From the NCBI GenBank assembly GCA_905178155.1, contig CAJINV010000006.1, positions 4,513,175 through 4,577,174 on the forward strand: 64,000 nt of DNA, in the 5' to 3' direction. Below, piece by piece: positions 455 to 63,300 of the stretch. Every line of letters starts with the position of its first letter. Position 1 is the stretch's first letter. This stretch comes from Amoebophrya sp. A120. Its lineage: Eukaryota > Protista > Dinoflagellata. The translations under genes were made by a program, and so were the position numbers. The notes beneath the pieces are model-generated. The model ran no database searches, was not told the origin of the DNA, and saw only the letters and a program-made list of their open reading frames with translations.

Positions 455-2330
455 CAAATCGACAAGGAAGCTGAGGAGCCTGAAGAAGCTCGATCTAAGT
501 ATATGGACATTTGCACAACATCGACATCCAACAGTACCAGCTCAAGAACCCATTTAGGAGGACAGGCAGCAGCCCCAACATCATCACTCCCTGTAGTACC
601 ACCAGCGCGAGGACCTCGAAGATGATGAAAACTGGCCCGATGAAGGTTTTCTGCTGGTGGGTGGCCTTGTATGGAAGCATCAGGATCGACATCGACAAAG
701 GTGAAATAAGTACTTAGTTTGGGATGCATAAAATGCGACGCAAAAATTGCCTCTATTGCAGAGGACAGAAGGGATGCGGATTGTAAGCCTGTTGAGGGGT
801 AGAAATTGAGCCGCTAAAAAAAGTAGCATGACAAAATGCGTCTTCCTTACCCAAACAGCGCTGCAAACTGGATTTTAGGTCTGCCCAAATTTGTCATGCG
901 CCACGTGAAAACTAGGCAACAACTGGTATCCGTTTTATGCATCACAAATTATTTCAAATTCAACCCTGACGATTTCGATCCTGACACTTCCATACAATGA
1001 GCTGGGCAGGTCCCGTCTGCTTATCCTGTGCAAAAGTATCGTGCTCGTAGTAATTGCAAACATGCATTACAAATTTTGCTCTTAAGGTAAATCCGCATTA
1101 CAAATTTTCTTTCTCATGCTGAGGAAATTTGTAATTCATTTATACGAGGAGTACGATACTTTTGCAATGCATACTGCTTTTCGGGGAGCAACCAGATGAA
1201 CCTGGTCTCGTCCTTATCAAATGCAAATATGTCTGGGTCTGGAAACTTGTAATGCTGCGTCGGGAATAGTGGATGCTCTGTAATGCACAGCCAAGCATGA
1301 GAAATATCTGCGCTCCTTTGTGCTGCGTTTTTCGCATGACAAGCTGCGTTTTTGCATGAAAGGAAAAAGGGTCTCTTCTTGAACACGCATCACAAACTTT
1401 TGGGTCATGCCAGACAAGCATGACAAATCTCGGAAACGGAATCTTCCAGACCCAGACATTTTTGCATTTGATAGTTCTCGACAGGCAACAACATGTACGA
1501 CACTGCACAACTCGACGCCCTTCCCCTTTATCGTATAGCATGAACGGCAATAGTACAACCATCAGCAACGTTGCCGGTTTTGCATGACAAATTTGCAGTG
1601 CAGTGTGCCGCTAGTTGGGGTCGTGCCAGAACTTGTCATGCAAACAGTGCCACGAGGCAAAAAAAGGGTGGAATGTGGATTGGGTACTGTTTTGCATGAC
1701 AAATGAGGGGCAGGGGGGGTTGTGCACTGTCATATTAACATGCCGCTTTTATTCGTCGAGGCGGTGCGCAAGAAAGCGAGTCCTTCGCTTGTTGACCAAA
1801 TGCATGGCTTTCGTCGCTTCTCGGGTAGGGGCACCAGCGCTTTGGACTTTGACAAGTGGTCGCAGATGACGACGCAGGAGCTGCCGGAAGAAGAACGTAT
1901 CAACTGCAAAGGATTTGTTGACTTCGGTCGTGTGGTATCAAACGGAAAAATCCCCCCTCCCCATATCGAAAAGATATGTCTCCGAAAATTTGTGTTGCTG
2001 ATTTGTGAAGACCACAAATCGGGTCTGCCTTGCAAGAAGGCCCACTCAGGCTGTCCGCCACGTTATGGAGGCGAGTTGTAATGCTGTAAGGCATACAGGG
2101 TAGCCGGCTACCATGCTAGGCGCCTACACCAAAAGGCCCCCGCCTAGGCTCAGGATCTGCGTGCATTCCTCTACTGCAGCACAAGTGTGCTTTTTTGTGT
2201 ATCCAAATCCAGCATCAGCACTTTCGTTTTGATATGGGGAGGGGGGATTTTTCCCTTTGATATGTGGTCCTCTGGAATTTTTAAAATACCGGAACCGGGA
2301 TTGCACGACGGCTTGCCTCCGTGTATTAAG
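455..2330 (+). CDS. Introner-interrupted coding fragment of unknown function, paralogous to the 5' part of the gene at 11500-21317; boundaries uncertain
   Basis: atgccgcttttattcgtcgaggcggtgcgcaagaaa (1740) resembles atgccgctttttgtggaagcggtcagcaagaaa (~12914). Five TIR elements interrupt the region. Confidence 0.4.
670..994. mobile_element. Introner, family I
   Basis: TIR tatggaagcatcaggatcga...tcgatcctgacacttccata; degenerate TSD CCTTG/CAATG. Confidence 0.7.
1022..1173. mobile_element. Introner, family A
   Basis: tat..tgcaaaagtatcgt...acgatacttttgca..ata; TSD CTGCT. Confidence 0.85.
1215..1473. mobile_element. Introner, family B
   Basis: tatcaaatgcaaatatgtctgggtctggaa...ttccagacccagacatttttgcatttgata; TSD GTCCT/GTTCT. 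Confidence 0.88.
1496..1734. mobile_element. Introner, family F (degenerate left end)
   Basis: tacgacactgcacaac...gttgtgcactgtcata; ACATG on both sides, offset by 3 nt on the right. Confidence 0.65.
1936..2262. mobile_element. Introner, family C
   Basis: tatcaaacggaaaaatcccccctccccatatc...gatatggggaggggggatttttccctttgata; TSD TGTGG. Confidence 0.88.
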
Positions 2331-2744
2331 ATCTGTATGATTTTTGCATGACACGTGAGAACGCGACCGCGTTTGTCATGCAGAAACTACGCAGGTAGAG
2401 TTGCAGTTTCAGTGGAAGCGCACGCTGCGAGTGGGAATAGTAAAAAGCGTCAAGAAGTTGCTGCACAGAGAGCTCTAGTGCGTCTGCGTCTGGTGTTGAA
2501 GATGGACATGTTTGTATAAAATATGTAGGTTTATGTCGCTGTAGAGTTGTTGAAAATGCTGATTAAGATTAAGAGCAGTGTCGTGTTTGGTCGTGCTGCC
2601 CGTCAAGAAGTACTTAAGTATGATCGGGTCGTCGTCCCGTTTATTCACAATCCTCGTCGGGCCAAGAACTCCGTCCAGAGGACCGAAAGATCACTTCTTT
2701 TGTTATTTTGCAGTTGATACTATGTGAAACTGAAAGCGGAGAAG

Positions 2745-3129
2745 TATGGAAGTGTCAGGTTATTTGAAATCGATTATAAAGTTGAAGAGATTTATTTGTG
2801 ATGCACAAAATCGACACCGGAATCGGTTGGACTTCAAATTTCTAACCATACGCGGCGCGTTACAAATTTTGGAAACACCTCCCAAATCCAACCTGTCATT
2901 GACTGTTTGGGGCAAAGAATACTGCTTAATATTTTGTCACGCTCCGTCGCAGCTTTGACCCCCAACATCACCCCATCAAACAGGCGTAGGACAATTATCG
3001 GCCTTCTCACTTGATGCCATCCCTGCATGGCGGGCAGTCTGTGTCTGGCATCTTCTCATGTACCGCAAATTACTTATTTATAACTACTACACTTACGCCC
3101 CTGCCAATTTCGAGCCTGGCGCTTCCATA
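2745..3129. mobile_element. Introner, family I
   Basis: tatggaagtgtcagg...cctggcgcttccata; TSD unclear. Confidence 0.6.
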
Positions 3130-5348
3130 TTACGAAGCTCGAGGGGAAAGCGAGAATCAGCCGCCCGCATCGTGGTCAGGCTGGTTGCAGAAGCAGACTT
3201 TCGGACCGCTCGAATTGTCTCTGGCAGGACTTGTAGCAACCGAATTCGCCCTCGGGGCCTGGGCGAACGAGCTCGGAGCTTTCGACGACTTCAAAACTCG
3301 TGCGGCCGCGAGTTATGTCCCGCTTACGGTGTTTTTGCAATCGGATCTGTGTGAGCATATAGTTGTATATGCAGGCGGCAAAACAACATAGTACAACAAC
3401 TTCGTTGCCGCGCAAACGAAACACGATTTGGATCTGGGTCCTCTAGCCCATCCTCATCTTCAAAAAACATGGAAGAACACGTCGCGGCTGTGGAAACCAC
3501 AGCTCTGTCTGCTCAAGGTGGAACCACCAACATCTCTTCAAGAAATGTTCGTTTCCTGTGCTTCGGAGGTGTGAGCAAATAGTTCCATCTATGATCATGG
3601 ATGATGATGCATGCATCAAGAGACGCGGCTGCCCAGCAGATTAAGATGTCGTTGTAACAGTTGAGATTGTAAAAGCACCTGAGCGAGCTATAGAGTCTGG
3701 AATTCCATGCCGTTTTGGAAGAAAGTGAAAAACGAAGAGACTTTCAAGTCGATGCTCGAAAACATGACCACGGTTGCGGAGGAGACATTGGACGACGTGA
3801 CCAACCTGCCTGTTCCGCAAGCCGGGAAGCCTTTCACGGGAAACCAAGATGCGGACAAAATGGGGGAACTCGCAGCAAAGATGGCGGATTTGCAAGCGCA
3901 GGCGAAGAAGGTCGCGGACTTTTTCGACTGGAATCCTTGCTCCGGACCTGATGCTGCCACCTGTGCGAAAGATGAGTGGTTTGAAAAAACTGAAGCCGGC
4001 GCTGCTCCGCACCAGGCCCTTGTGAAGAACGCTGAGTTGCTGAACGCCGGCCTCAAGATTCTGTGAGAGGGGCTGGGTCTCGTGACCCTGGAACAACAAG
4101 GAGATACTACTACGTCGGTGGAGCCGGAGACCATGAACGCTCAAAAACTGCAGGAATTCTGGAACTTCGAGGACCGCCAACTGGAGTCTGACCTCCGGGA
4201 TGTGATCGCGATTTTGAAACACTTTCCGGGGGTTCTGCGGAAGTCGAAGACCGACGAAGACGTGGCGAGCATGCCGCGTGTAAATCTCAGCTTGGGGGAA
4301 GTCGGTATTTTGCAACTTAGTATCCGGCGATCTCTGGAGGATTTCGAAAAAATGTGGAGGAAGGTGGTTGACGATTTGCGTACAATCAAGAACTCTGGCA
4401 AACAGGAGGTATGATCCAGGAAAAGATTTAAACTGTGCTAGTGCAGATTTGTTGTGTAGAAGTCCTCGTGAAGAAGATGTTGACGAGCATGCTCACCAAG
4501 ACGTTTTTTCTTCGCGTTCGCATGAGGAAGGCGAAGGCACCCACTTCGGTAGTGAGTGAGTCAGCGACATAAAATTATACCCTCGAAGAAGCATGATGAA
4601 GGCGCAAAGAGTATTTTTAAAACCTGCAATGATGTGAAGACTTGTACGTAAGTAGCTGCCACATCTCCTCGGTATGTTGAGAAAAAACTAACATGGCGAG
4701 GACGTATGTGACGCAGACGCACACTTATCGAAGAGTGCGTCATGTACTAGGTATAAATAAACGTTGTGTGTCATCTTCTTGCAGCATCGTCTGTGACTGC
4801 AACTACAGAAACCTGCACTGGGCCAGTTTTTGTCGTGCATAAGTGCGGCTAGTGGCATATCACATGTAAAAACGTAGTACCCAGCATCCCCCATCAATAG
4901 TCAACATGCCACTCTTGCTAATACACAAGTCCAGAATTATTTGTGGCTGTTGTGCACCATGGCATTGGCAACTGGAACTTTGAGATTTACTATATAGTCT
5001 CGCTGTGGCTTCTTGCCAATATGCAGTCGTCTTGATCAATAACAAGTGCAGCAGGAAGACCGATTTCATTTCCCAGAGAGCATTCGATGAAAATGGCTCT
5101 CCTGTGGCTTCGCATATGATCAAACGCATATTATTTTGAAGGGCATGCAGATTGATTATTTCCTTCACAGAGATGGAGTCGCGGGCTGGTCGTTTTTACT
5201 TTATGATAAGGTAGCAGACGCTGAGGTCCTCTACACGGGCCTGCAAGGCATGCACATGATTGTCGATGAATACCCGGAGTTGTGGGACAACCCGGATGAT
5301 GTCACGCGGAACAAGTTGGAAGCGTTAGAAAAACTGCGCAGAGAACTA

Positions 5349-6218
5349 GGGGAGAAAAGTTTTGCCATCTCTACAAAAAGTTGACCCCCCCAGAACACGC
5401 GAAAAGAAGAAGTCGCGTCTTTGGGGCTTTGAGCTTTTTCTTTTTGTTTTTTCAGGCAGTCGGCGGCGTCGCGCAGCCACCCCCAATCGCCTGGGTCCGC
5501 CTGGGCCGCCGTGGTTTGCGGCTGCTTCGGTTGTCGGGGCTTCTTGGAGTCTTGCTTCACATGTGCCGGCCGTGCAAGGCGAGGGGGCCCCCGCTGTGAG
5601 CGCGCAGCCCTTAGCAAGGCTTTAGAATTTCTGCTAATCGCCGCTGTCGGTGGCGCTTGCGGGTTCCCGCGGCGAGAGTGTTCGAAACAATAAGAAAGCG
5701 CCCGCAGATTTCGCCCTGCCCGACCCCCGAAGGGGGTGGGCTAGGGCGGTCGGTTTTGGGGGTGCTTCAAATCGCCGGATCCTATAGGGGAGAAGGGGGT
5801 CGCTTTTGGGGCTCGTTTTTGGGGGTGGCTTCTGGGGCTCTCGTTGTTGGCAAGTGCGGCCTCCTAGGTCTGACGCTTCCCGCCAGACCGATCGGGCCAC
5901 AACGTGACTGGACTAACTTGATGCGCCCGCCGCGCTGCGTCGGTCCTGGGATCATTGGGCCGATTGCCTGACCGCCTTCGGCACCTGGGGAACACGGGGG
6001 GGCGAGCACCCGGCGGCGCCGCTCGCTCCTGCCCAATGGCTTCCGGCGGAAGTTCCTATTGATGTGAAACGCAACAGCCGCAAGCCAAATTTGCAGGAGC
6101 TGCGGAGCCCGCAAGCGGTCTGTCAAATAGGGCGAGACCCCCAAAAACAACTTTTTTTTTTCGCGGGCGTGTTCTGGGGGGGTCAACTTTTTGTAGAGAT
6201 GGCAAAATTTTTCTGCCC
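5349..6218. mobile_element. MITE-like element with ~52-bp TIRs, GGG...CCC ends and TA flanks
   Basis: 5349-5400 (ggggagaaaagttttgccatctctacaaaaagttgaccc...agaacacgc) is the near-perfect reverse complement of 6167-6218. TA on both sides; GC-rich interior. Confidence 0.85.
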
Positions 6219-6367
6219 TAAAAGAAACCAACATATGTGATTCCAAACTGCAACCACATTCTGACCGATCCTTCCTGGAATCCTCAATCCACTGTGACTT
6301 GAACTCGCTGGAAGACCGCCTTGGTGAAGCCTTCGTAGCTCTCGGGGATTCGTACCATCCTTTTCAA

Positions 6368-6699
6368 TATCCAGTGCAGCAAAAGCAAATGTGTTTGGGT
6401 CTGGAAAGTGAGTTGTGATGCATGTCAGTGAATAAGAATAGCCACACTTCTGAAAAATGTAGCGCCAACCATCACTTTTAGTTTCTTTTCGTGGCTCCTT
6501 TGTCGTGGAGTTGTGTATTTCGTATGAAAATATATAAACTGCGTTGTTGCATGACAGACTAGAGGAGCTTGTTTTCGTGCTGGCCACGCGAAAATACAGA
6601 GCACCTCCGTGCAGGCAACATGCGTCGAGACTAGCATGAAAAATTTCGCAACTACCTGCTTTCAGTCCCAGAGTAGATAAGTGATATTTGCAATGCATA
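6368..6699. mobile_element. Introner, degenerate family B
   Basis: tatccagtgca..tgtttgggtctggaaag...atatttgcaatgcata; TSD TTCAA. Confidence 0.75.
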
Positions 6700-7348
6700 T
6701 TCAACTTCCAGCGTTTGATGACAATTACGATCCGTCCGCTCCCGCACGACCCGTTTCGGGTACTAGTGCTTTTGCGGACGATCGTGGAGCTGCAAAAACC
6801 GCATCGGGGGAAGCAGGTGCAGCAGCAGCAAGTCCTCTTCCTCTGAGTGCGACTGCGACACTACTGCCAGCAGCGGCCAGCACCGCAGGAGCTGGAGCTC
6901 TTGCCGCTGCACCACCGGCAGGGCGTCCAGGTCGTGCTGTTCCGGAAACGAAAGCAGCTGGTGACACGCAAGCCATGGGGGATGACGCGAAGAAACCAAC
7001 AGCTGCCCCTTTTTATCCAGCAGTGCAAATTTGTTGATGTCTGTACCTGTTGCAAGGAGATGGAGCGTGCGCTTGCTTGTTTTAGTTTTACTCGTTGTAG
7101 CTTTGGATCATGATCTTCACACGATCGACCCATGTTGAGTCCACCCCGGAAGGCACATCACAAAAGTAATCTGATATAGCATCTTTACAGGAGGTCTGGT
7201 TTGTTGATGTTGTGTGACCCAAAGAAGTTACTGGCCGTGCCGGTGGAACTAATAATTGCACCAGAACCGCAGATCATTGATGTTTGCAATGCATACCCCT
7301 GCAGCTGCATCTCCCGGGGCCCCTGCAGCAGGTCCACTCACGACCGGG

Positions 7349-7626
7349 GGCGACCGTCGACCGCCGGGCGGGGCTCACGTCGCCCCACCACGAGCTTCCC
7401 CAGGAGAAGCTGCTTCAGCAGGAAGTCGAAGTTCTACACCAGCCACGGTCGCAGCAGGCACGTCCGCAATGTCCGCGGCACCACAAGGCGACCGTCGACC
7501 GCCGGGCGGGGCTCACGTCGCCCCACCACGAGCTTCCCCAGGAGAAGCTGCTTCAGCAGGAAGTCGAAGTTCTACACCAGCCACGGTCGCAGCAGGCACG
7601 TCCGCAATGTCCGCGGCACCACAAGG
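7349..7626 (+). repeat. Perfect 138-bp tandem duplication (46 codons) in an Ala/Pro-rich exon
   Basis: ggcgaccgtcgaccgccggg...gcaccacaa occurs at 7349 and 7487. Confidence 0.95.
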
Positions 7627-7949
7627 TCGTGGACTTCTTGTACCACCCGCACCATCTACAACTGCAGCGCCATCTAGTACTCCAACTACACCAGCCACGC
7701 CAGCGCCTGCCGTCGGGCGGGCTGCAGCCGCGCCAGGACAACTTCGAGGTGCTGGTGCACCAGCAACAACGGCAGTCGCGATGATGTTGACCCCAGCAGC
7801 CGCGGCTCCCGGGGCGAAGTTCCAGATGTCGCCGGCGGCTTCCAGCCCTTCCACCGTAGTTCCTGGTGCCGCGACCACAGGAGCTGCTTCCACGACGACC
7901 AAACAAGCCCCCGCACCAGGACAACATCAAGTTGTTTCCACACCAGAAC

Positions 7950-8091
7950 TATGAACTGCAAGAGTATCGTACTATGTATAAATGCAAGTCTTGCACTTTT
8001 ACAAATATTTTTCTTAATGTAAAATTTCTCATGCTGAGAATGAAAATTTGTAATGCATTTATACGATAATGCGATACTTTTGCAGTTCATA
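7950..8091. mobile_element. Introner, family A
   Basis: tatgaactgcaagagtatcg...cgatacttttgcagttcata; TSD AGAAC. Confidence 0.85.
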
Positions 8092-10052
8092 AGAACAAGG
8101 ACCTCCTGCGGCTGCGCCTGCTGGTGCAGCTGCAGGAGTATCTTCGACAATGCCTCCAGCAGCTGGCGCTCCTGGAGGCGGTGGCGCCGGTGCAGCACAA
8201 CAACCGCAGCAAGCAGCTGACGTGCGGGTTCTCCACCAGATGACGTGCCCCCGCCTGAAAAAGCTGCTTCCGGCGGCGACGGGTCATGCGCGGACTGCCT
8301 GATGGAAGATGCATAAAATCGTGTTTGGTCGTGCTGCCCGTCAAGAAGTATTAAACTGGTGTTCACGGGGCGGGGGTGGGCTCCTTTTCAGCGTTAATGC
8401 TTCGACCACAATCAGACTTCCACACTTTCAACGAAGAAAATGCACTTCACATTGTTCCCTGACGTTTACATATTTGTCGCAGATAATGAAAATAAAGATT
8501 TGCTTCGAGTTTTTTTTTGTTTAAGAATCCCGCGCGGAGCCCGCGCGTGCAAACACGCACTATAGATAGATAGATAGAATCAGTATAGCTGAAGCTGATT
8601 CCAAATATTCCTGTTTCTCATGCAAAAAAGCAATTTGCATGCTTTCCAATTATTCCAAAATTGAAGTTTAAGTAGAGTCAATCAGTATGTTGTAAACGTT
8701 CTGGCCAACAGCAACATGAACATGATGAATTAGAATTACTATGCTTGTATAATTAAATAAAGACTGCTGACAAGCACTTACAAGTTTCCAATCTGATATT
8801 ATAATAAACTCCGATGCTGTATTGAGTTTTCTCGTAGAAGATACATTTCATCCGTTGCCACGGGATGAACACGAAGGGATTGAAGGTTGGACGCGACTAG
8901 CACGGCGACATCAATGGAATTCGTTTCTTTCATGAGGAGGATACCTATGGAAAACAAAGACGGAATGAAATTGAAAATGAAAAAAAACTACAATCGTGCT
9001 CTCGCTCTGTTGTCCGAACTACTACAATTATAACATAATTTCAATTTGAGCAGCCTAATGCAACTGACTGGTTTGTTGCACCCCAAGTATATCAATCGTG
9101 ATGTTATTGTAGGCCTACTAGTACTCGCGATCAGCTCGATCGAATTCTCTTGGTTGATATTCTCGAATTATTTCGCGGTATCCTACTGGTCGCCGATGAT
9201 GAAGATTTGTCTTACATGCCGCGTGCGCTCGGTTTATTGTCGTCAACGAGGTACTAGAAGAACGTCAGTCGGTTCTCGGAAACGACCAAAAAATGCCTGC
9301 ACTCTGTCGGTCTTCGTCGTCAGCTTTCTTCGGACCACACCCTTTGAGGTGCGACGACGTAAGACTACTTGGCGCGGAAGAAAACCGTAAGTAATTTACA
9401 ATTTGTTTTTGTTACATCTCTTTTATTTTAATTTTGCACGACGTCTCAGTGTCAGTACTCTAAGTCTAATCAGTATGTAGAAGCTTGGGCTTCTCTATCT
9501 TCGGTTGACGACTGCACGCGCACCTTCCGTCTCGCGAGCGTCTGGCGACTGCGATTGTTTCAAGGGCCACTTTTAATGGTGAACCATACAACTCGTTCGG
9601 TATAGTTGCATAGCTACTTCTTTTTACCACGTTGTAGATTCAAGTACGTAGTGAAACTCTGGCTACATCGCTCTGTTCAAATCGTCGGTGTTTTAGTTGT
9701 TTTCCCCTTTTCATCTCGATCGGTGCACGAACTCGTCCTCTTAACACGAAGGAAAGCTTCATGATTGATGTGTTGATGTTGCCATTTTCTCGGTGTGGTA
9801 CTTTTTCTGGTCGTCAAGATTTTTTCCTCGGTTCATATTATATTTCAACGACTGTGTCGTGTCGCTGGTGTTACCGCGAGAGGATTTGTTCTTCGGTAGT
9901 AGCAACAGACGGAGACAGCGCCCACGTCCTGGATCTGCGCCTGAGCAGTTGGCGTCGTGGTAAGAAAATGAAAAACATAAAAGAACTCGTCAAACACCCG
10001 CGGTGATTCAAACCTGCGCGCCGTCGCAACTATACCTCTTCCAACGTTCTGC

Positions 10053-11075
10053 TTTTGTACTTCCATGAACTGACAGCAACGCCTGCGATTGATCTTTATT
10101 TATGGTCAAAACGGTGGTAGCAATAATACATTTGCAGGACTTGCTGGGGACTTGCAAAAAACTTGCGCAAGTCTAGCAATTTGCCCCATCCCGAAACGGC
10201 GAAAACACTTGCGCAGCGCCCCCTTCTCCGCCAATTGCAATGTCCTGGAAAAACTTGCGCGAACGACAGCGCGCGCGCAGCAAATTTCTGTGGAAAACGC
10301 TTGCGGCGACGGAGGACTGTGGCAATTTGAGAACTCCAAAAAAACTTGTGACTGCGCGCATTTTCGTGCGGTTCTTTCTTTTCGAAAACGCTTGCTGGGC
10401 TGCGTCGTTCACTGCGACTCAGCCCTCCGGAAAACACTGCCGGCCCTACCGCAGTCGGCGCTTTTTTGGCGCCTCGCTGACACGGTTTCTTGGCTTTGGC
10501 AGGGCCGTCAGTTCTCCGTTGTTTCGCCCATTTCGGAACCGCCTCCGTTTGCAAGGGCGCGCGTAGGCGTGGATGTGTCCCGATTCCTCGCGCGCTGGTA
10601 TGGTCGCCACAGGCTCTCCTCTCTGGCCCTTGCTTATTCTTCTTTCGACAGACCGACGAAGCTTTTGGCTTCAGCTACCACATGTCTCTTCGCAAATGCC
10701 CCGCCATCTGATAGGGAGAGCCCTTTGCCTGTGCCTGGGTTTGACTTCGGGGTCAGCTGTGCAATGGGAAAGCCCTCCGAGGGACAGGCGGCGAGCATGT
10801 GTCCCGAAGCTGCGCAGGATGTTGTCGCGGAGGCCTCTTCGCCCTGTATGAGTCATAGCGTGTTGCCTAATCAATATCATTCCATCCCGACGGCAGAGTG
10901 CGAGCCGCACCGGCCAAGTTGGCCCGCCAACGCTTGCCGCGCGAGATGAAGAATTTCGGTGGCGCCGGGGCTTCCGGCAGGCGAGAGCCCGCCGACCTCG
11001 CAGCCACTGCGCCGTCCTGTTTATGTTTTTGCACTTCCATGAACCGACAGCAACGCCCATGATTGATCTTTATTT
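10053..11075. mobile_element. 925-bp GC-rich insert flanked by a 49-bp imperfect direct repeat
   Basis: 10053-10101 and 11027-11075 match at 44/49 nt; composition changes abruptly between them. Confidence 0.65.
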
Positions 11076-11499
11076 CTCTCCCCCACCGGTGTTGTCTTGG
11101 TTAATTATTTGCTTCTCTTTCCCCCTTCAAGTTCAACTTTCATTCCTATTTTCAACGACCGTTGTAGAAGCCCTATCATTTCTATTCAAAATACGAGTAT
11201 ACTGAAACTATTAAAAAGAAAAACGACTCATAAAAATCTGGACGAAGAACACACTGAAACTTTGTCAACTACAGTCCCATCGCATTGAATAAATTTTGTT
11301 TCCGAAGAAGTACTTCTACACCCTTGCTTTGTCATCAAATTGAAGAAGGAGCGCGACCGCGTTGCTCTTTACTTGCACAACTAAGTCATTGAAGTTTTCC
11401 GTCAAAAAAACTTGGTGGAAGCGCAACTACGTGGTCTCTGCTCTCCCTGAAAGGCGAAGAACGTGATCTGCTGCCTCCTGCTGGAGAATTATTGCATCT

Positions 11500-52969: not shown

Positions 52970-55900
52970 ATGCAGTTCTTCGCTCGTGGTCCTAATGCGC
53001 CATCGTGGCCGTCCCACAGAAGAGGGCTATGCATTGCAAAAGTATCGTACTCGTATAAATGCATTACAAATTATTTCCTCAGCATGAGAAAGAAAAATTG
53101 GTAATGCAGATTCGCCTTGGAAACAAGATTTGTAATGCAAGGCCCGCATTTCTTGTACGAGTTGTACGATACTTTTGCACAGGATAAGGGCTCGTCCTCG
53201 TGAGCAACCTCTTGTTTTGCCCGCCTCTACTGCGGAAATGGTTCTTTTTGCTTGGTTCCGTCAGCACCGCCTCCAACGATGGCAGCTCTACTACGCCTTT
53301 TCGGGCGTCCGCAACGATCCCGGCGGCGACCGCGCTCTTCACCTGGTCGGGAGACGAGGATGAGGATAACAGCGCAATTATCCTGAGTAAAAACGTCCCC
53401 ACCCCATAGTTGTCATGCAGATTTGCGATTACAGGAAGATTTGTAATGCGCATCTCCGTGGGAGGCATTTCCAGTTGCGTTTTGGAATTTGTAATGCTGT
53501 AAACGGGATGAGCAGATGGCTTTGTGATGCGGCTGCACTTGCTAAACTGCACTACACTACGGACTGGAATTTGTCATGCGTTGCTCCCAAAGCCTCTGGG
53601 TTTGTGTTGCTAAGTTCCCAACTTGACTATGGGGTGGGGACGTTTTTACATATGATAGCAATCTGGGAAGATGTGGAGCGAGAAAGTTTCTTGCAAGATG
53701 AGGAAGAGTATGACTTGCAAAAGTTGTACTAGCATAAAGTGCAATACAAATTGGCTCAGCATTGCGGATTTACATATAGCGCCTAGATTTGTAATGCATA
53801 ATTAACAGCAATGAGTACTAGCACGCTACTTTTGCAACGCATAAAGAGGATTGGTCCACCGCCGGGACGGAGGTTGGAACCGGAGCGGGGACGACAACAA
53901 GAACGGCGAGGAAGAGAGCCACGAAAACTGCAAGTAAAAAAACCGCTGGTGTGGTAATAGACGATGGCGAAGAAGCAACAGCTCCTGAGAAGGAGGAAGA
54001 ACTACCGGAAGCAGCAGGAGATGACGTAGTAGGTGACGCAGCAAAAGCAATACGACCAGATGAAGACAAAGAGGAAGGTCTACTTCCAGAAGTAGAACCT
54101 CCAGATAAACAAGAGGACCAAGACCGTGAAGTAGATGAACCCAGCAAAACTGCATCCTCGTCCTCCCCCCGAGATGCCGCTGCTGCAGCAACCTCAACAT
54201 CTTCAGACTCCGACGACCCCGAAATATGCATTGCAAAAGAATCGTACTAGGAGAGATAGCATTTAACAAATTTTTTTAAGAATAAAAACGCAACCTGTGA
54301 TGCTAAATCAGGTGGAATATTAGATTTGTCTTGCACGGTTGCTGCAATTATACTACGAGTGCGATAGTACTTTTACAATGCATACGAAAAGTCCGTCTAC
54401 GAAAGGGGGTTGTATCCGAAAGACCCGGATTTCACACGACAAGTGAACTGCGACTTTTCATATGCAATACAAATTTCCCGTACATCATGTACAAGATGCA
54501 TCACAAAAAAAAAAGATGCATCACAATTTTCACCAATTTAGGGCGTAACACTTCATCATGCTAAACCAGGATCGGAGCCAAGTTTTGTGATGCAGAGACC
54601 GCATGTGTACGTGTACGGGAAATTTATTGTGGATATTTCAAGGCCAGAATGGCAGCAGTACCGGCACGTTTACGAAGTAGCGCTGAACCGGGAGGACCAA
54701 CATGACGACGACACGAGAAGCAACCAAGAAAAGATCAACGAGCTAATCCAGTCCACGAGGATACTGTCGTCTGTCTTATGGGCACGCGCGAGAAACGTGA
54801 CCGATATTTTGACCTGCAACGTCGGGATTATCGCGGGTTATCAGCGCCTCTCGCACGCGCTGCTGATCGCGGGTCTCGGTCCCAAAACCGCACTGTACCG
54901 CTACCGGTTGTTGCAGTTAGCTCTGATCTATGAACTGCAAAAGTATCGTAATCGTATAAATGCATTACAAATCTTCTCAGCATGAGATTGAGAAATAAAA
55001 TCTGTGATGCTGATTTGCCTTGACAAAGAAATTTGTAATGCAAGACCTGCATTTATACGAGTCCGACACTTGTTTTGCACAGCATATGATCTTCATTTTC
55101 ACACTGAGAAACGCGAACAAGATACCGAAAGTCGCAGGGGAGTATTGGGCAGCGTCGGAGCATATGCATTGCAAATATGTCTGGGTCTGGAATAAACTTG
55201 TGATGCGGGTTAGCGAATCTTAACGACGCCGCAATTGACGGCCCAGCATGACAGGTTTCATCAGGGGTGCTAGGTGTTGTCTATTCTGCATGACAAACTG
55301 CGTTTCTGCATGATAGAAAAGTTGTGAGGCTTTTGGGTGAGTTGCATCACAGGCTTGAGATTCATGCCAGGCTAGCATGACAAATCTCGCAATCTTCCAG
55401 ACGCAGATGACATGATTGCATTTGATAGAGCAGTACATTATTCCGAATATCATGGCGATAAGAAGACACGTGGAGCAGGTGGAATTGCAGCAACGGAAGG
55501 AAAGAGAGTGGTTCACCGGCAGAACCGTCGCGAACACCTTTAGAGACCCGAACATGCGAATAGCGATCGTCAGTATCTGCGCCTACCCGCCGACAAGTAC
55601 TTATGATATAAATACTGATGCATTTTTGTGGTCATGCGAATGGTTTGTGAGAATTTTGTAGCTGGTTGTAGTTCGACTTCATCAGCGAGAGAAGAATCTT
55701 GTGCCATCCCACAATTTGAATCCCGTGCAATTGCAAACTAAATGCGAATGCTTCTCTTTCAACTACTACAAATCAGGTGACATTGCTTTGAAGGACGTCA
55801 CACCCGTTAACCGCGAGGTCTACGCTATCATTTGTCAAAACGTCCCCGCCCCCGGGTTGTGATGCAGATTTGCAATCACAGGAACATTTGTAATGCGCAT

Positions 55901-58900
55901 CTCCATAAGAGGCGTTTGAACCGCCTCTCATGGAGATGCGCATTACAAATGAGAAACGCCGCGTTTCTAGTCGTGTTTTGGAATTTGTAATGCTGTAACC
56001 AGGATAAGCAGACGGATTTGTGATTCACGTTTGTCCTTGCTAGCCCGCACTACGCTAGTACAGACTGCAACTTGTAATGCGTGAGGCCCGAAAGCGAAGC
56101 TGCTAGGTTTGTGTTGCAAAATCCCCACTCTGGGGTGGGGATGTTTTTGCAGAGGATATACGCAAGGAAACACGGCTACGCGTTGCGGCTACACACCGAG
56201 CCGCCCTTATCGCACGAAAAAACTGTTTCACTGTGAACTTGTAATGCAGAAACTGCATCTCAGAAGTGTTTGTGTTTGTCTTGCTACACATGCAAGACTG
56301 GGAGTTTTTAGCTGCGTTTTCCCTTAGGAACCTCGCATGGCAAGTTTTGTGTGTCATGTGTAACAAACTTGTGATGCAGATCTTGCAAAATCATCACAGT
56401 GAAACAGTTTTTTCATACGATAACCCCTGCTGGGCGGGAACGTGCAGATTCAGCACGCGAAGCTAGCGACCGTGAACCACTACGTATAGAAGCTTCTAGT
56501 TTGCCATGCGTATTATATCACCAAAAGAAAGTTTTTGTCATGCGTACTTGACATGACAATCATTTACAACCCAAAAAATCATTCCAGATCCGCAGCGGTG
56601 AATTTGATTGGGTCGTGTGGCTCGATTGCGACAGTTATCAACTGCAAAAATGTCTGGGTCTGGAAGATCGTAACTTGTCGTGCTAGATCTGAATCCTGTA
56701 AAAGTCTGTGTTGCGTGATTACCAAAAGCTGTCCAGTTTTGACCTAATCGAGAGGCAGTTGCTCATGCAGGATAGGCATGGCAAAGACCTCACAAAGTCT
56801 GTCATGCTAGGTCCCGCATTCAGGAACTCGTGGGTCATGGAAGTCCTGCCATTACAAGTTTGCACTGTTCCAGACCCAGACACTTTTGCATTTGATAACA
56901 GTTTAATCATGAACCTGGACCACACCATTGATTCCATCATTTACCGGGCCGCCGGAAAATGGTCCTCGAACAACTTTTATCACGTGCAAATAAAGTATCG
57001 TACTCGTATAAATGCATTACAACTTTCCTTAGCATGAGAAAAAAAGATTTGTAATGCTGATTTACCTTGAGAAAAAGATTTGTAATGCATGACTGCATAC
57101 GAGTACGATACTTTTGCACAGGATAACTTTGCGGGCGAGTGGAAGGACACCTGGGACCCGAACGTGATCGAGATCAAAGTGAACGAGAACGTATGCAGTG
57201 CAAAAGCATCGTGATCGTATAAATGCATTACAAGTTTCCAGGAAACTTCCTCAGCATGAGAAATAAAATTTGTAATGCTGGTTGACCTCAAGGAAAAGAC
57301 TTGTAATGCATGATTGGAATACGAGTACGATACTTTTGCACAGGATAAAACGAGGTGACCGCGAAAGCGATCCAGTTTGGTACCGCGACCGGCCACATGG
57401 AGGGGAAAACGTTGGTGATGGAGTTTGAAAACGCCATGGAGCCGTTAGAAGGACAGCTGCAGCAGACGGAAGAAGGGGATATCATTCAGTGGAGCAACGG
57501 AGCGGTTTGGCACAGAACCCGGAATTATCTACTGCAAATATGTCTGGGTCTGGAACATGGCAACTTGTCATGCCAAATCTGAATCATGTAAAGATCTGTG
57601 TTGCAGGATTACCAAAAGCTGGCCACTTTTGACCAAGTTGGCCGGGGGTTTCTCATGCAGAATAGGCATGATAGAGGTGAGTAAGTCATGTCTCTAGAGA
57701 CTGGAGGTCTCACAGACGGCGCAGAAATCCATGCTAGAAGACAAGATTGAGATAGAGAAAATGAGGTCTCACAGAATCTGTCATGCTAGGTCCTGCATTT
57801 TTGCAGGCCTCATGCGTCATGTAACACCTGCATGACAAGTTTGCATCTTTCCAGACCCAGACATATTTGCAATGCATAGGAAAATCGAGCCTTGCTTGAA
57901 CCCAGCGGACTGTCCGGAATTGAAAGGCTTGGACGATAGCATTGACTTGCTGATAACAGAAGAATATCCATTGCAAAAGTTTCACCATCGGGCGCGTAGT
58001 ACTCATGGCGATGTCGCATGACAAATAGAAGTTTCTTACCTGAATCAGCATTGCAAACGTCATTTTTGCTTGCCGCGAATGAAAAATTGGTGATGCAAGG
58101 TGCTTATACTAGTACGACACGGATGTACAACTTTTGCGTTCCATAAAGAAGGCTGGGGACTCAGCAGCGCCAACTGGATGGTATCGATACATTATAGCGA
58201 TTTGGTTATTGGCACTTTCATGCAAGAGCGAGCTGATGCTAGAAAGCACTTACTCGTAGCTTGGGCTAGCTAGCCGTCCGTGGACTTGTCCTCACTGTTT
58301 CTTGGGTACGATTACGTATAGATCGATTCACTTCTACGCGATATTCATCCTTGGAGAAAACATGGGAGTTCTTCGCGAATTTTGGGAACGATAAAAACAA
58401 AATTTTGGAATTTCGCGGATTTTTGAAAGTGGTAAAAATAAAATTTGAAAGTTTCGTGGGTTTCTAGTAGCTTTCATTTCAGATTGGGCGTGCACGAGCA
58501 TGGTTTTGTTATGAATGTGTCTACCCAAGAACTCCTTACGGCTCAGATTCTTATCCCTGAGCCCTCGCCTCGAACATTGTCATTTGTCAAGGTGGCAATT
58601 AAAATTAAAATTTTGAAGTTTCGCGGATTTGCCAGCTGGCCTCCAGCTTGGCCAGGCAAAATCGCCTACTTTTTCGACAAGTGAAATCGACCATAGCGTG
58701 GAGGGAGCGAACGCGCGAAGGGTATTTTGGTCCAGCCATGCTAGTCCAGCTGGCCAGGCAAAATCGTCTATTTTTTCGACACGTCAAATCGGCCATAGCC
58801 TCGGGGGAACGAAAACGCGCGCGCTATTTTGGCCCGGCCGAGCTGGCCCAGCTTGGCCAGGCAAAATCGTCTCCTTTTTCGACACGCCAAATCGACCATA

Positions 58901-61900
58901 GCCTCGGGGGAACGAAAACGCGCGCGCTATTTTGGCCCGGCCGACCTGGCCCAGCTTGGCCAGGCAAAATCGTCTCCTTTTTCGACACGCCAAATCGACC
59001 ATAGCCTCGGGGGAACGAAAACGCGCGCGCTATTTTGGCCCGGCCGAGCTGGTCCAGCTTGGCCAGGCAAAGTCGTCTACTTTTTCGACACGCCAAATCG
59101 ACCATAGCCTCGGGGGAACGAAAACGCGCGCGCTATTTTGGCCCGGCCGACCTGGCCCAGCTTGGCCAGGCAAAATCGTCTCCTTTTTCGACACGCCAAA
59201 TCGACCATAGCCTCGGGGGAACGAAAACGCGCGCGCTATTTTGGCCCGGCCGAGCTGGCCCAGCTTGGCCAGGCAAAGTCGTCTACTTTTTCGACACGTC
59301 AAATCGACCATAGCCTCGGGGGAACGAAAACGCGCGCGCTATTTTGGCCCGGCCGAGCTGGCCCAGCTTGGCCAGGCAAAGTCGTCTACTTTTTCGACAC
59401 GTCAAATCGACCATAGCCTCGGGGGAACGAAAACGCGCGCGCTATTTTGGCCCGGCCGAGCTGGCCCAGCTTGGCCAGGCAAAATCGTCTACTTTTTCGA
59501 CACGTCAAATCGACCATAGCCTCGAGGGAACGAAAACGCGCGCACTATTTTGGCCCGGCCGAGCTGGCCCAGCTTGGCCAGGCAAAATCAGCTACTTTTT
59601 CGACACGTGAAATCGATCATAGCCTCGGGGGAACGAAAACGCGCGCGCTATTTTGGCCCGGCCGAGATAGCCCAGCTTGGCCAGGCAAAATCGTCTACTT
59701 TTTCGACACGTCAAATCGACCATAGCGCCGCGGGAGCGAACGCGCGGAGGACATTTTGGCCCGGCCAAGCTGGCCTCCAGCTGGCGAGGCAAAGTCGGCT
59801 ACTTTTTGGGCGGGCGAAATCGACCATAGCCTCGAGGGAATGAAAACGCGGAGGACATTTTGGCCCGGCCAAGTTGGACTCCAGCTGGCTAGGCAAAGTC
59901 GGCTACTTTTTGGGCGGGTGAAGTCGACCATAGCGCCGCGGGAGCGAACGCGCGGGGGGCATTTCGGCCCGGCCAAGCTGGACTCCAGCTGGCGAGGCAA
60001 AGTCGGCTACTTTTTGGGTGGGCGAAATCGACCATAGCCTCGAGGGAACGAAAACGCGGAAGACATTTTGGCCCGGCCAAATTGGACTCCAGCGAGCTGG
60101 CTAGGCAAAGTGGGCTACTTTTTGGGCGGGTGAAGTCGACCATAGCGCCGCGGGAGCGAACGCGCGGAGGACATTTTGGCCCGGCTCAGCTGGCCAGCAA
60201 GAGTCGGCTCGGCCCAGCTGGGCCAGGTAAAGTCGCCAACTTTTTCTTGGGCGGTGGCGAAATGGGCCATAGCGGCGAGTTCGACGACAACAAAACATAA
60301 CGAAACTGACAGGTTCGTCGTTCTCATTGGACCATCAATTTCCTGGATCAAGCGCTCGACGTTGCCCATGTCCAGATCCTATGTATTGCAAAAGTACCGT
60401 ACTACCGTACTAGCATATAGTGATCAATTCGGTCAGCATCAGGAATGGAATTTGTAATGCGGACGCAGCTTAGGAAAGGGATTTGTAATGCATAAATACA
60501 ATTGCTACGAGTGCGACACTTTTGCACACCATAGATCCCGCTTTTTGGTGACCAAGATGCGATCATTTACCTGGTCATGAACGACCAAACTATGAGAGTG
60601 CACAACCCCCCCTCCCGGTCCCGCTCATTTCCATTTGCCATGCAAAATCCCAAATCTACCTCTTGTATGTTAGCACTTTTTGCATGACAGATTCCGACAG
60701 CCAAAACAGCACTACAATCCTCCAGGAATTTGTCATGCAAAAGCTGCAGCTTTGCCAGCGCTTGCGTTGCTGTTCATGCAACACAACTGAGGGGGACGAG
60801 GGGGATTTGTGCACTCTCATACAAACCCTGCGAGGTTTAACCGACGTATTGGCCGACGATGCGGAGCAGATCACTTCCTTAAAGGAAAGCGAGCAACTCC
60901 CGGACCCTTTGGACAGTCACGTGCGCGTGATCCCGCAACGGGAACTGAATGCGTATGATCTATGGCGTTCTCATCAAATGTTAAACTCTCAGCTAATACA
61001 TGGCTTGTCATGCAAAAACACTATCACCCTTCACACGATCAAGCCTTCTTCGAATGACAACTTCTCGACGCGCTACATAGAACTACAATACGCCGCCCCA
61101 AATCTGTAATGCAAAAGTCGCAATCTTCCTCCACTCCTTTGCCTTTCACTTTTGCCATTGTTGCATTACAAATTTATGTAGCAGCTGAGAATCAATGTAA
61201 CGTTTGAGAACTCGATATGATCATCTAAACGCGTACACCATGGACGTGGATTATGAAAGTGCACAACTCCCCCTCCCCCTCGTTTGTCATGCAAAATCCC
61301 AAATCCACTTGCTGCCCTGTAGCACTGGTGATTACGTGTATGGGAGTCAGCATGGTGATTACGTGTATGGGAGTCAGCATACACGTAGAGTTGTGATCTC
61401 CTTCGGGTCGGTTTTCTTCTTGTGTCGCTTTCTTTTGTGCCACCGGCGTTCTTCAACAAGAAGACTTTCTCGCGCCTGATTGTCTGGTATGCATGTGAGA
61501 ATTTGTATGTCGATTTGGTTGCACGGGACTGAGACTGAACAGACGGCGAGCGTTTTCAGTTTTGACGTGTATCGGAACTGACACTACAGTGGCCAGCTCG
61601 AATAGAGCTTGTTCGTTCCTTGTGGCTTTCGTGTTCCCCTGTCTGTGCCATGGGTCTATGAGAGACTTCGACGTAGAAGTAGTAACGGTAGTTTTGTAAT
61701 CCACGTATTTTTCGCGTGGTTGTCCTAGGTGAGCTAGCACCCGTGTCCGTGGACAACCATCTAAGACGCGGAAAATAGCGAGCACTTTAGTTTTTGGCTT
61801 TCTCTGGTTTGGTCATGATTTTTGGACCGCTTCTTAGGGTGGTCGAGAAAGCCAGACTAAAGACGGCACGGGCAGAAGTGGATCGGTTTAGAAGCGCGCT

Positions 61901-63300
61901 AGTATGTAGTGTTAGTTAAGGTAGATTATAGTTATTTTAGCTTGGATTAAATAGTTTATTTCCCGTCTTGGGGTTTGTAATGTAGTTGCTCCGCCCTTGT
62001 TGTTTCGGGCTTGTTCCGACCTTTTGCATGATCTGATGCTGTCTCGGTCGGTGGTGTGTGTGGTTTCATCTCTGCTCCCTCGGTTGCGGACGTTTTTGCA
62101 TTTGTCCGCTGCGACAGTTCGCCTTGTTTGCAGCTGCTCGCCATGAAAGCAACTACATTACATCTTGCCTCACTTTTTTGAGATGGGTTCTTTCGTATCT
62201 AGGACTGTGCCATAGTAGATGACTTTACCGCTTTTTTACTTTTCTTTTATCCCTCAGCGCTGGTGGGTCTGCCGGCAAAATTATCCCTACTCAGATAGCT
62301 ACAAAGCTCATTCCGCAGCCGTCCCAGGAGCTCTTGTGGCTGTCTCTCGGTAGTGATCGCTTTGCCCGTGCTTATTCCGCTCAGAGTTTGCTGGGTAGGT
62401 GGTTACCGTTTGTAGCTTTTATAAAGAAATGGGACGCCCTGCCCTTAGCCTTCCAACATGACAAATTCCGGAAGCCCAAAGAGTAATACACAAGGCGCAT
62501 AAATTTGCCATGCATAGGCTCCATGTGTGCTGGTGTCTGTATTGCTGCTCATGCCATACAAATGAGGGGAAGGGGGAGTTGTGCACTGTCATATGGATGG
62601 GTACCAGTTCGGCGATCTGCTCGTTACCTTCCCACAGTGCAAGGACGCGAGCTGCAACGCGTTGTTCCACCTCGCCGCGGAGTACGCGCACGAACGGGAC
62701 GAGTTCGCGTTCAATCCCCACGACTGGACGCACGTCCGGCTGTTTGGACCGAGGGACTTGGTCGCCATGTGGTGGCGGAGACATATGGAGGAGGAGAGGA
62801 GGCGGGAAAACGAAAATGAGGATGAGGACGACAACGACGATGAAAATGCTAGCGGTAATAAAGCGGAACAGGATGATGTTGAGGAAGACGATAACGATGC
62901 AGCGAGTACAACAAGTTCTAACCCGGCGAAAATCTCTGTTCGGGGGGAGGAGCAGCAACAGGAGGAGTCGTTACTTTCCTCCGTCGAGGGACTGGAAGAT
63001 GACGTGTACGAGGAAGGGAACAACCCTGCTGACGAGGCAGAGGCTGGCGTGGACGCGGAGACAGGAGAGGACGTCCTAGATGCAGGGCAACAAGATCTTC
63101 ATGACGACCAGTACGATGATGAACCAGGAGTAGAACCAGGAGTAGAACAACCCGAGGATCCGGAACTAGAAGGGGGAGTAGATGAAAACGAGCACCTTGC
63201 TGAGCCTGAAATCATGGAAGAGGAAGAGCATTTCACTGGGGACGGGGAAGGCTTTGAAGAGACCTACGATGCTGGGGGCGGGACTGTGGAGGATGAGTAA
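52970..63300 (+). CDS. Glycosyltransferase family 34-like protein (GMA12/MNN10 galactosyl/mannosyltransferase type) with acidic N- and C-terminal extensions; 22 exons
   Basis: Spliced motifs RIAIVS, NREVYARKHGY, HAKL, EFDWVVWLDCDSLIMN (DxD), DLLITEEGWGLSSANWMVRRSHW, GDQDAI, IPQRELNAY and YQFGDLLVTFPQC occur in GT34 order. 18 introners plus GT-AG introns at 55597-55776, 56484-56587 and 58181-60312. Start codon tentative. Confidence 0.87.
53028..53186. mobile_element. Introner, family A
   Basis: TSD AGGGC. Confidence 0.88.
53379..53657. mobile_element. Introner, family D, opposite orientation to 36808-37086
   Basis: TSD GCAAT. Confidence 0.88.
53709..53843. mobile_element. Introner, degenerate family A
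   Basis: TSD AAGAG. Confidence 0.82.
54225..54384. mobile_element. Introner, degenerate family A
   Basis: TSD CGAAA. Confidence 0.82.
54461..54635. mobile_element. Introner, family J
   Basis: tatgcaatacaaatttcccgtaca...tgtacgggaaatttattgtggata; TSD TTTCA. Confidence 0.82.
54929..55086. mobile_element. Introner, family A
   Basis: TSD TGATC. Confidence 0.87.
55163..55427. mobile_element. Introner, family B
   Basis: TSD GAGCA. Confidence 0.87.
55597..55776 (+). other. Canonical GT-AG intron
   Basis: gtactt...atcag; spliced frame YPPTSDIALK. Confidence 0.75.
55826..56158. mobile_element. Introner, family D, with internal fold-back
   Basis: TSD TACGC; spliced frame EVYARKHGY. Confidence 0.88.
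56208..56422. mobile_element. Introner, family H
   Basis: tatcgcacgaaaaaactgtttcactgtga...tcacagtgaaacagttttttcatacgata; TSD GCCCT/ACCCC. Confidence 0.85.
56484..56587 (+). other. Canonical GT-AG intron carrying introner-type internal motifs
   Basis: gtatag...ttccag; frame VNHY|IRSGEFDW. Confidence 0.78.
56636..56897. mobile_element. Introner, family B
   Basis: TSD ACAGT; frame LDCDS|LIMN. Confidence 0.9.
56978..57125. mobile_element. Introner, family A
   Basis: TSD ACTTT. Confidence 0.88.
57192..57347. mobile_element. Introner, family A
   Basis: TSD GAACG/AAACG. Confidence 0.87.
57526..57878. mobile_element. Introner, family B, with ~90-bp internal insertion
   Basis: TSD GGAAT/GGAAA. 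Confidence 0.85.
57965..58145. mobile_element. Introner, degenerate family A
   Basis: TSD AAGAA. Confidence 0.8.
58181..60312 (+). other. 2.1-kb canonical GT-AG intron containing a satellite
   Basis: ATG|gtatcg...ctgacag|GTT gives NWM|VRRSHW. Confidence 0.82.
58628..60270. repeat. GC-rich tandem satellite with ~103-bp unit, ~16 copies
   Basis: Exact 103-bp period in the core (ORF starts 58829, 58932, 59035 ... 59550); diverged ~104-bp units at the edges. Confidence 0.95.
60380..60533. mobile_element. Introner, family A
   Basis: TSD GATCC. Confidence 0.85.
60591..60821. mobile_element. Introner, family F
   Basis: TSD CAAAC. Confidence 0.88.
60961..61217. mobile_element. Introner, family E
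   Basis: TSD TGATC. Confidence 0.85.
61252..62593. mobile_element. Introner, family F, expanded by a ~1.1-kb internal insert
   Basis: tatgaaagtgcacaactcccc...ggggagttgtgcactgtcata; TSD TGGAT; frame MDVD|GYQF. Confidence 0.87.

Follow-up and report, generated by a model that had tools for sequence, protein, structure and literature searches.

The window analysed here, a stretch of 64,000 nucleotides from contig CAJINV010000006.1 of Amoebophrya sp. A120, holds genes interrupted by many short elements with terminal inverted repeats (TIRs), the introners of this dinoflagellate, and the interiors of these elements share a conserved word, GCAT(G/T/C)ACAA, on both strands. A search for matching arms and flanking direct repeats gave, after curation, 63 elements running from TAT to ATA (Table 1), 49 of which have a perfect 5-bp target site duplication (TSD); curation dropped two of the 64 detector calls by eye (4858 and 59414) and added one element (1496). 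The carriers of the word are introners that have already been published for A120: exon 46790-47311 is 100% identical over 174 amino acids to a protein named Amoebophrya sp. A120, the ends follow the published arrangement of TAT, seven variable bases and AAA with direct repeats at the boundaries (3-5 nt in the published inverted-repeat elements; Farhat et al. 2021, PMC7789003; see also PMC12130899), and the elements are skipped in transcripts as element plus 5 bp, the published ones likewise being spliced non-canonically.

Removal is best documented for the gene at 53-58 kb, where 13 of 13 catalogued elements are skipped, as exactly their length plus 5 bp, in contigs from four runs marked 'RNA?', that is, probable RNA, the same contigs also skipping two GT-AG introns. 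Together these are the 15 joints that were listed, 10 further joints being unlisted. A 7.1-kb contig likewise skips elements in the gene at 28.9-39.1 kb, contigs from the DNA-like run X1 read into elements, and for RNA run X9 only 6 raw reads were placed. Elements are removed in either orientation, and one with an internal insertion (57526-57878) is still skipped. An AG lies within reach at only 110 of 231 acceptor flanks. The GT-AG introns at 56484-56587 (two motif sites) and 55597-55776 (a one-mismatch site), both in the introner-rich gene, are possibly decayed introners turned canonical.

The set was enlarged by a metagenome scan with a 31-bp paired pattern, which gave 145 loci, mostly from one assembly, JACKZZ01. 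The 65 long JACKZZ01 loci (391 kb) yielded 273 elements; 14 further long loci, of 79 in all, were set aside as chance matches or the DNA of other organisms, and the short loci L168-L232, 65 in number, did not enter the set. Run on 89.7 kb of shuffled DNA, the detector called no element. With 62 window elements, one of 974 bp being left out of the family set, these make 335 distinct entries, falling into 17 families of at least two members and 29 singletons. The closest JACKZZ01 element is 94.9% identical to one in the window, one open reading frame of the assembly had no relative and another matched no named A120 protein, and the assembly is not counted as a lineage independent of A120. Sixty-four JACKZZ01 elements ascertained by the pattern were removed from the histograms of spacing and phase only, and are included in the analyses of conservation, strand, pairing, weight matrix, held-out families and TSDs. 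A scan of viral contigs with the paired-motif pattern gave 89 loci, mostly single matches at 30-bp spacing, which we put down to coding repeats or chance and kept out of the set.

The 670 ends of the 335 elements have a common pattern, TAT-S-M-A-N-T-G-C-AAAA, as published for A120 (PMC7789003), the detector having required the TAT with at most one mismatch, and they are family-specific only at positions about 15-30; the preliminary description of this DNA, which spoke of unrelated TIRs, was mistaken on this point. Terminal 10-mers (TATGCATTGC, TATCAAATGC and TATGAACTGC) recur across families whose inner repeats differ, and a single element often has unlike ends at positions 1-10, which suggests that ends are swapped or that only a few kinds are permitted.

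Both strands of the window together hold 154 exact copies of GCAT(G/T/C)ACAA, where dinucleotide shuffles give 2.33 +/- 1.49 (maximum 7). Counted as forward plus reverse complement, there are 33 + 37 of GCATGACAA, 22 + 30 of GCATTACAA and 16 + 16 of GCATCACAA; only 1 site has A as its middle base. Among 155 sites of the form GCATNACAA, 146 lie within the 63 catalogued elements (16,071 bp) and nine in the remaining 47,929 bp, which bears out the preliminary description in that the word is common to the families on both strands and rare in exons and intergenic DNA. Its extent, given there as 1022..62593, needs correction, the final exact site being at 61284 and 62593 being the end of a broken element. 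Judged by eye, the strong sites outside the catalogue mostly belong to broken elements missed by the detector (e.g. 48704-48929, 49680-50180 and 16742-16921), and a few are exonic (e.g. 27751). A weight matrix from 1,505 interior sites reads W-G-C-A-(T/a)-B-A-(C/g)-A-(A/g)-R-Y-Y-Y, about 15 bits, with GCATGACAG, GCATGAGAA and GCAAYACAA as frequent variants. At least two interior sites are found in 329 of the 335 elements, and their number grows with element length (rho 0.52); the six elements with 0-1 sites all restore the reading frame when removed, which is not proof that these motif-poor copies are spliced.

The sites also obey a spacing rule. When same-direction neighbours 26-37 bp apart are considered, pattern-ascertained elements included, 314 of 365 stand at 31-33 bp (182, 72 and 60), and the peak stays after removal of the 64 ascertained elements and is also present in families absent from the window (F10, F11, F14, F35, F36 and F44). 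Opposite-direction neighbours have peaks at 15-17, 33-37, 46-50, 59 and 68 bp. The first site lies 36-40 or 44-48 bp from the end if its ACAA side is outward, and about 38-43 or 47-52 bp if it is inward; apart from a terminal variant, no sites occur in about the first 35 bp. The spacing of about 20-35 bp first proposed covers only 39% of 1,173 adjacent gaps, those of 15-19 and 45-54 bp being common as well; of the two 31-bp pairs offered as examples, 1064/1095 is genuine, and in 18180/18211 the site at 18180 is a variant, GCAACACAA. To bring out a period of 10.4 bp, opposite-direction sites must be displaced by roughly half a turn (matched by 0 of 1500 random layouts), and the phase offsets of 0, 4.0 and 6.0 bp add up to a full turn, as a model with all sites on one face predicts, this phase model having been fitted after the data were seen. 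In the ten main families (F00-F09) the phasing persists with the 31-bp pairs held fixed (0 of 3000 jitters). A 16-bp grid fits the main families more poorly than the 10.4-bp model, and fails in held-out families too. The direct three-turn spacing is the safe statement; general phasing is unproven.

Conservation of the word exceeds that of its surroundings. Across 11 aligned families the eight core positions have a pairwise identity of 0.855, compared to 0.657 for the free middle base, 0.639 for the linkers and 0.837 for TIR positions 15-30, and the core is more conserved than the linkers in every one of them. In 27 close pairs (at least 88% identity) the core differs at 43/1208 positions (0.036), linkers at 288/3405 (0.085) and TIRs at 57/972 (0.059), with 0.13 differences per site at end positions 4-10 and 0.04 (6/151) at the middle base. 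BLAST between families reaches 49 bits, at 88% identity, on 40-bp modules that contain the motif; with motif and ends masked, the best match has 27 bits (E 0.04). The linkers of 31-bp pairs have identities of 0.24-0.42 between families compared to 0.51-0.66 within the five large ones. Since the core outlasts the linkers, masked families are unalignable, and linkers are unlike between families, these sequence comparisons indicate that selection maintains both the word and its spacing, however these arose. The preliminary description had staked its reading on an excess conservation of motif positions and on families that are not alignable throughout, and both are found.

We infer that the motif is read on double-stranded DNA and that the TIR stem serves splicing, because there is neither a sense-strand bias nor a pairing signal. 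For the 231 of 336 elements with a strand called from restored frames, sense-strand sites number 499 versus 526 (p 0.42). Nine tabulated families occur in genes both ways round, and all sites have one direction in 34 of 304 elements with at least three sites, one such copy (53379-53657, with six reversed sites) being spliced. The outermost opposing sites do not covary at the free base (complementary in 88 of 201, versus 83 +/- 3.5 when shuffled), and local inverted pairs are complementary at 7.27 of 9 positions, versus 7.18 at random. TIR arms do covary within elements (0.781 versus 0.749 +/- 0.005, to which subfamily structure could contribute), and they close strong predicted RNA folds (z -6.3 and -6.1).

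Introners also keep a preferred distance from each other. Of 276 gaps between adjacent elements, 103 measure 35-89 bp, where the null gives 28.7 (maximum 43 in 1000), with a mean of 62 bp and a standard deviation of 14; 6 gaps lie below 35 bp and 20 at 90-144 bp, with a sharp fall at 90 bp. The window alone gives 20 of 62, gaps within called reading frames 77 of 178, and comparison to a within-cluster null 91 of 187 versus 52 (maximum 69 of 2000). Local hopping from a neighbour was rejected as the cause, because close neighbours are not enriched for the same family (15/103 versus 0.16 expected). We found no periodicity inside these gaps, and no relation of gap size to the first-site distance of either neighbour. 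The spacing may come from tethering by a putative motif-bound protein, or it may come from a general preference for short exons, which is possible because the two GT-AG introns of the 53-58-kb gene also have flanking exons of 43-60 bp.

The reading we favour, with about an even chance of being correct, is that the sites form a predicted double-stranded binding array for a mobilisation machinery common to all families, akin to the subterminal repeats of transposons. The partner could be the DNA-binding domain of a transposase or integrase, or a co-opted DNA-bending protein. Proteins binding the sites cooperatively would bend the element (110-330 bp) or wrap it, which would allow its ends to be paired and cut out or copied, and only copies with intact arrays would leave descendants, while splicing would rest mainly on the terminal-repeat stem. 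More speculatively, a protein on a resident element might draw new insertions to 35-89 bp from its edge. Three things favour movement: the word keeps to mobile elements, it has a precedent in transposase-bound subterminal repeats, and in the three largest families it is like the element end, which there scores as a weak copy of the motif (mean -7 to 0 bits, background -31), a likeness that is expected if one domain reads both ends and interior. The near-identical elements at 18133 and 36808 (Table 1) probably reflect a recent move. A binding site for a common factor that acts in either orientation, as first proposed, is thus plausible, since motif conservation holds and masked families do not align; of the candidates named for it, a splicing factor acting on RNA is disfavoured.

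Precedents are found in several transposons. For instance, BED domains of the hAT element Hermes bind short subterminal repeats in both directions (PMC10368747), and Lemi1 proteins bind cooperatively to subterminal motifs of Emigrant, a miniature inverted-repeat transposable element (MITE; PMC1636448). Like these, A120 introners have several short motifs, in both directions, inward of the TIRs; unlike them, the A120 word is not concentrated near the ends, is longer (about 15 bits), has a 31-33-bp spacing, and is common to families with different TIRs. The TnpA sites of En/Spm are another case of short transposase-bound motifs in both directions inward of TIRs. Target duplications are 8 bp in hAT and TA in pogo, and those of 5 bp are typical of copia integrases; the 5-bp TSD of A120 elements departs from the 8 bp of the hAT superfamily. 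Farhat et al. record putative transposases in A25 alone, argue against a general mobilisation by transposases, and pose the movement of A120 introners without a recognised transposase, and their splicing without U1 or fixed sites, as open questions (PMC7789003). Gozashti et al. 2025 class the A120 families mostly as TIR DNA elements, with no superfamily assigned, in most of 21/58 supplement rows, and note one A120 family with integrase-like homology (PMC12130899), which makes that family a candidate of interest.

Several results weigh against a mobilisation array. The likeness of end and motif is weak or absent in F03-F09 and F11, sites occur throughout the interior and not just in subterminal zones, and no binding protein or autonomous element was identified, no genome-wide search for an autonomous parent having been made. 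Comparisons meant to tell selection during movement from selection after insertion did not separate the two: alignments hint at a slightly higher core divergence in copies with mismatched TSDs (p 0.049), the alignment-free repeat gives p 0.3-0.9, and deviation at the best sites stays within what TSD mismatch predicts, in a comparison that is ascertainment-biased. The 10.4-bp phasing was not reproduced in held-out families once the 31-bp pairs were fixed (p 0.25 and 0.49, against 0.03 and 0.08 with all gaps jittered); same-direction gaps of 18, 39 and 49 bp misfit the period, and element lengths have no helical period (amplitude at most 0.24).

The main rival, rather unlikely in our estimate, is a host DNA-binding protein, chromatin or architectural, that sits on the arrays and marks introner DNA, for example aiding the co-transcriptional removal of U1-independent introns, so that introners with the word would be tolerated and spread. 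Such a protein would explain why the two strands are used alike, why families share the word, why it tiles the whole interior and why longer elements have more sites, and the distance of 35-89 bp between neighbours could be an exclusion zone plus open flank. Many main sites deviate by only 0.00-0.03 per copy at G, C and A, which does not exceed the decay of 0.023-0.046 that TSD mismatches suggest; a GT-AG intron has kept two sites, and U1 small nuclear RNA was undetected in A120 (PMC7789003). However, the word is nearly absent outside introners, which would mean a host site made just for these elements, the six motif-poor copies restore frame, and core divergence is 0.088 in frame-supported copies compared to 0.092 in others (p 0.82).

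Quite unlikely is that the motif acts in RNA, either as a protein-bound enhancer of splicing or through internal helices that aid the intron fold. Splicing without canonical sites, the strong folds, the presence of both versions of the word in most elements and a slight excess of perfect local inverted pairs (19 versus 12.9 +/- 3.4) all fit this idea. However, it would have to accommodate the lack of strand bias, a spliced element with every site reversed and opposing sites that, unlike the TIR arms, do not covary, and a constant 31-33-nt spacing across unrelated linkers would suit a DNA helix better than single-stranded RNA. That the word is instead a now functionless leftover of one ancestral element of tandem units of about 31 bp, shuffled among families, would agree with the single end pattern, the shared 40-bp motif modules and end 10-mers such as TATGCATTGC in several families, but is highly improbable and largely refuted, because neutral ancestry would erode core and linkers alike, and the core is conserved while linkers and middle base have drifted towards random across families.

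Though the elements are known, a shared cis-element with a spacing rule is apparently unreported. The text of the A120 introner papers (PMC7789003, PMC12130899) treats families separately, and describes no shared interior motif, spacing rule or 35-89-bp neighbour spacing; nor are motif and neighbour spacing mentioned in the searched text of the Amoebophrya and introner literature, figures, Roy et al. 2023 and two supplement files of PMC12130899 being outside its scope. A similar picture is found in the non-conventional introns of euglenids, which have the same TIR-closed stems, TSD-like repeats, non-canonical junctions and a likely MITE origin, but whose description in the text of PMC11282704 includes, unlike A120, no interior repeated motif. 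Read as its reverse complement, RYTTGTNATGCW, the motif looks like the composite Sox2/Oct4 site of animals, a CATTGTC-like sequence beside a ATGCAAAT-like one (PMC4551974). That composite is an animal enhancer element (HMG + POU), and the likeness is most likely a coincidence. The ACAA half of the motif resembles an HMG-box core.

The shared conserved word can serve as pull-down bait and as a target of minigene mutagenesis, for the movement and splicing of tens of thousands of A120 introners, in an organism that is kept in culture. It also suggests that one machine serves the many families published so far, and it is a signature by which an autonomous parent could be traced. If the 35-89-bp spacing is true targeting, it would give dense intron gain a route that reinforces itself. 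A wider proposal, which we regard as unlikely, is that all A120-type families are one system, in which a single factor would read the shared word of 14 bp along a helically phased lattice, wrap the short element to pair its ends and tether insertions 35-89 bp from any resident introner, introns thus seeding introns next to them, and the same mark may label introns for splicing without U1.

Table 1. Motif span and catalogued elements of the window. Introners are named by the type of their ends; their strand is unassigned (.). Sites are offsets within the element, with < and > giving direction; skips are those in probable RNA contigs.
Feature	Positions	Strand	Details
Exact GCAT(G/T/C)ACAA sites, total span	826..61292	both strands	154 sites
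Introner, GGAAG-type	670..994	.	sites <54 >161 <226 >274
Introner, GTATCGTAC-type, ~150 bp	1022..1173	.	sites >47 >78 <94 <112; 1064/1095 31-bp pair; TSD ctgct
Introner, TGTCTGGGTCTGGAA-type	1215..1473	.	
Introner, GTGCACAAC-type	1496..1734	.	TSD degenerate (1 of 5)
Introner, CCCCCCTCCCCATATC-type	1936..2262	.	
Introner, GTATCG-type	7950..8091	.	
Introner, TGTCTGGG-type	11595..11846	.	
Introner, TTCTCA-type	11887..12124	.	alternating sites <46 >92 <141 >192
Introner, TGTCTGGG-type	13153..13414	.	
Introner, TGTCTGGG-type	13665..13933	.	
Introner, CGTACCC-type, degenerate and lengthened	14454..14875	.	
Introner, TGTCTGGG-type, degenerate	15116..15408	.	
Introner, GGAAG-type	15542..15859	.	
Introner, GTATCG-type	17618..17764	.	
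Introner, CGTACCC-type	18133..18411	.	97.8% identity to 36808-37086, TSDs differ
Introner, CGTACCC-type	18475..18754	.	every site in same direction
Old introner	18783..19043	.	one recognisable site, perfect TSD, removal restores frame
Introner, AAAAAACTG-type	19109..19414	.	
Introner, GTATCG-type	20064..20208	.	
Introner, TGTCTGGG-type	20915..21164	.	
Introner, GTATCG-type, internal insertion	26789..27197	.	
Introner, TGTCTGGG-type	27351..27620	.	
Introner, GTATCG-type, 974 bp	27926..28899	.	~820-bp GC-rich repeat inserted at 27958-28777, also in L103/L104 (78.5%)
Introner, GTATCG-type	30150..30310	.	skip includes one TSD copy (run X3, contig 10)
Introner, TGTCTGGG-type	31251..31503	.	RNA fold closed by terminal repeats, z -6.1
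Introner, TGTCTGGG-type	31692..31942	.	
Introner, CCCCAT-type	32584..32920	.	
Introner, GTATCG-type	33017..33165	.	
Introner, TGTCTGGG-type	33236..33497	.	
Introner, TGTCTGGG-type	33566..33825	.	
Introner, CCCCAT-type	34442..34752	.	sites <48 <80 <132 >232 >264
Introner, TGTCTGGG-type	34811..35063	.	
Introner, AAAAAAGTGTTAC-type	35117..35326	.	
Introner, CGTACCC-type	36808..37086	.	sites mostly GCAT..ACAA on + strand
Introner, GTATCG-type	37148..37318	.	
Introner, AAAA-type	37952..38163	.	
Introner, TGTCTGGG-type	38209..38462	.	
Introner, CCCCAT-type	38508..38835	.	
Introner, TGTCTGGG-type	41152..41420	.	
Introner, GTATCG-type	46638..46788	.	in gene whose next exon is the 100% A120 protein match
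Introner, TGTCTGGG-type	47312..47576	.	
Introner, TGTCTGGG-type	47796..48053	.	
Introner, AAAAAAGTGTTAC-type	48422..48631	.	
Introner, CGTACCC-type	50478..50766	.	
Introner, GTGCACAAC-type	51011..51239	.	
Introner, TGTCTGGG-type	51319..51587	.	
Introner, GTATCG-type	53028..53186	.	164-nt skip (159+5)
Introner, CGTACCC-type	53379..53657	.	all six sites TTGT..ATGC on sense strand; 284-nt skip (279+5)
Introner, GTATCG-type	53709..53843	.	140-nt skip
Introner, GTATCG-type	54225..54384	.	165-nt skip
Introner, AAATTTCCCGTAC-type	54461..54635	.	180-nt skip
Introner, GTATCG-type	54929..55086	.	163-nt skip
Introner, TGTCTGGG-type	55163..55427	.	270-nt skip
Introner, CGTCCCC-type	55826..56158	.	338-nt skip
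Introner, AAAAAACTG-type	56208..56422	.	220-nt skip
GT-AG intron	56484..56587	+	two motif sites 34 bp apart (56505, 56539)
Introner, TGTCTGGG-type	56636..56897	.	267-nt skip
Introner, GTATCG-type	56978..57125	.	153-nt skip
Introner, GTATCG-type	57192..57347	.	161-nt skip
Introner, TGTCTGGG-type, internal insertion	57526..57878	.	358-nt skip
Introner, GTATCG-type, degenerate	57965..58145	.	
Introner, GTATCG-type	60380..60533	.	
Introner, GTGCACAAC-type	60591..60821	.	
Introner, TTCTCA-type	60961..61217	.	

The window has further features of its own. The coiled-coil gene at 23148-39156 is very long, and its first open frame, of 1,404 codons without introners, is followed by a region with 18. Its 3' end and the start of the next gene are locally duplicated (38836-40400 / 41000-42800), and the two copies differ in the introners that they carry (38209 and 38508 versus 41152). 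Between 48700 and 50200, nested and truncated introner pieces surround a repeated CCCTGAAAACAAACCGAAACTCACGCCCGCGATT segment and a GC-rich insert, and a short piece of the coiled-coil gene, from near 30950, is found again in this region. A tandem array of units of about 81 bp (TTGGCCAGGCAAAATCG...) at 58640-60230 is motif-free, and at 5347-6220 lies a member of a different TIR family, with 54-bp inverted arms that are 96% complementary and a GC-rich interior without the motif.

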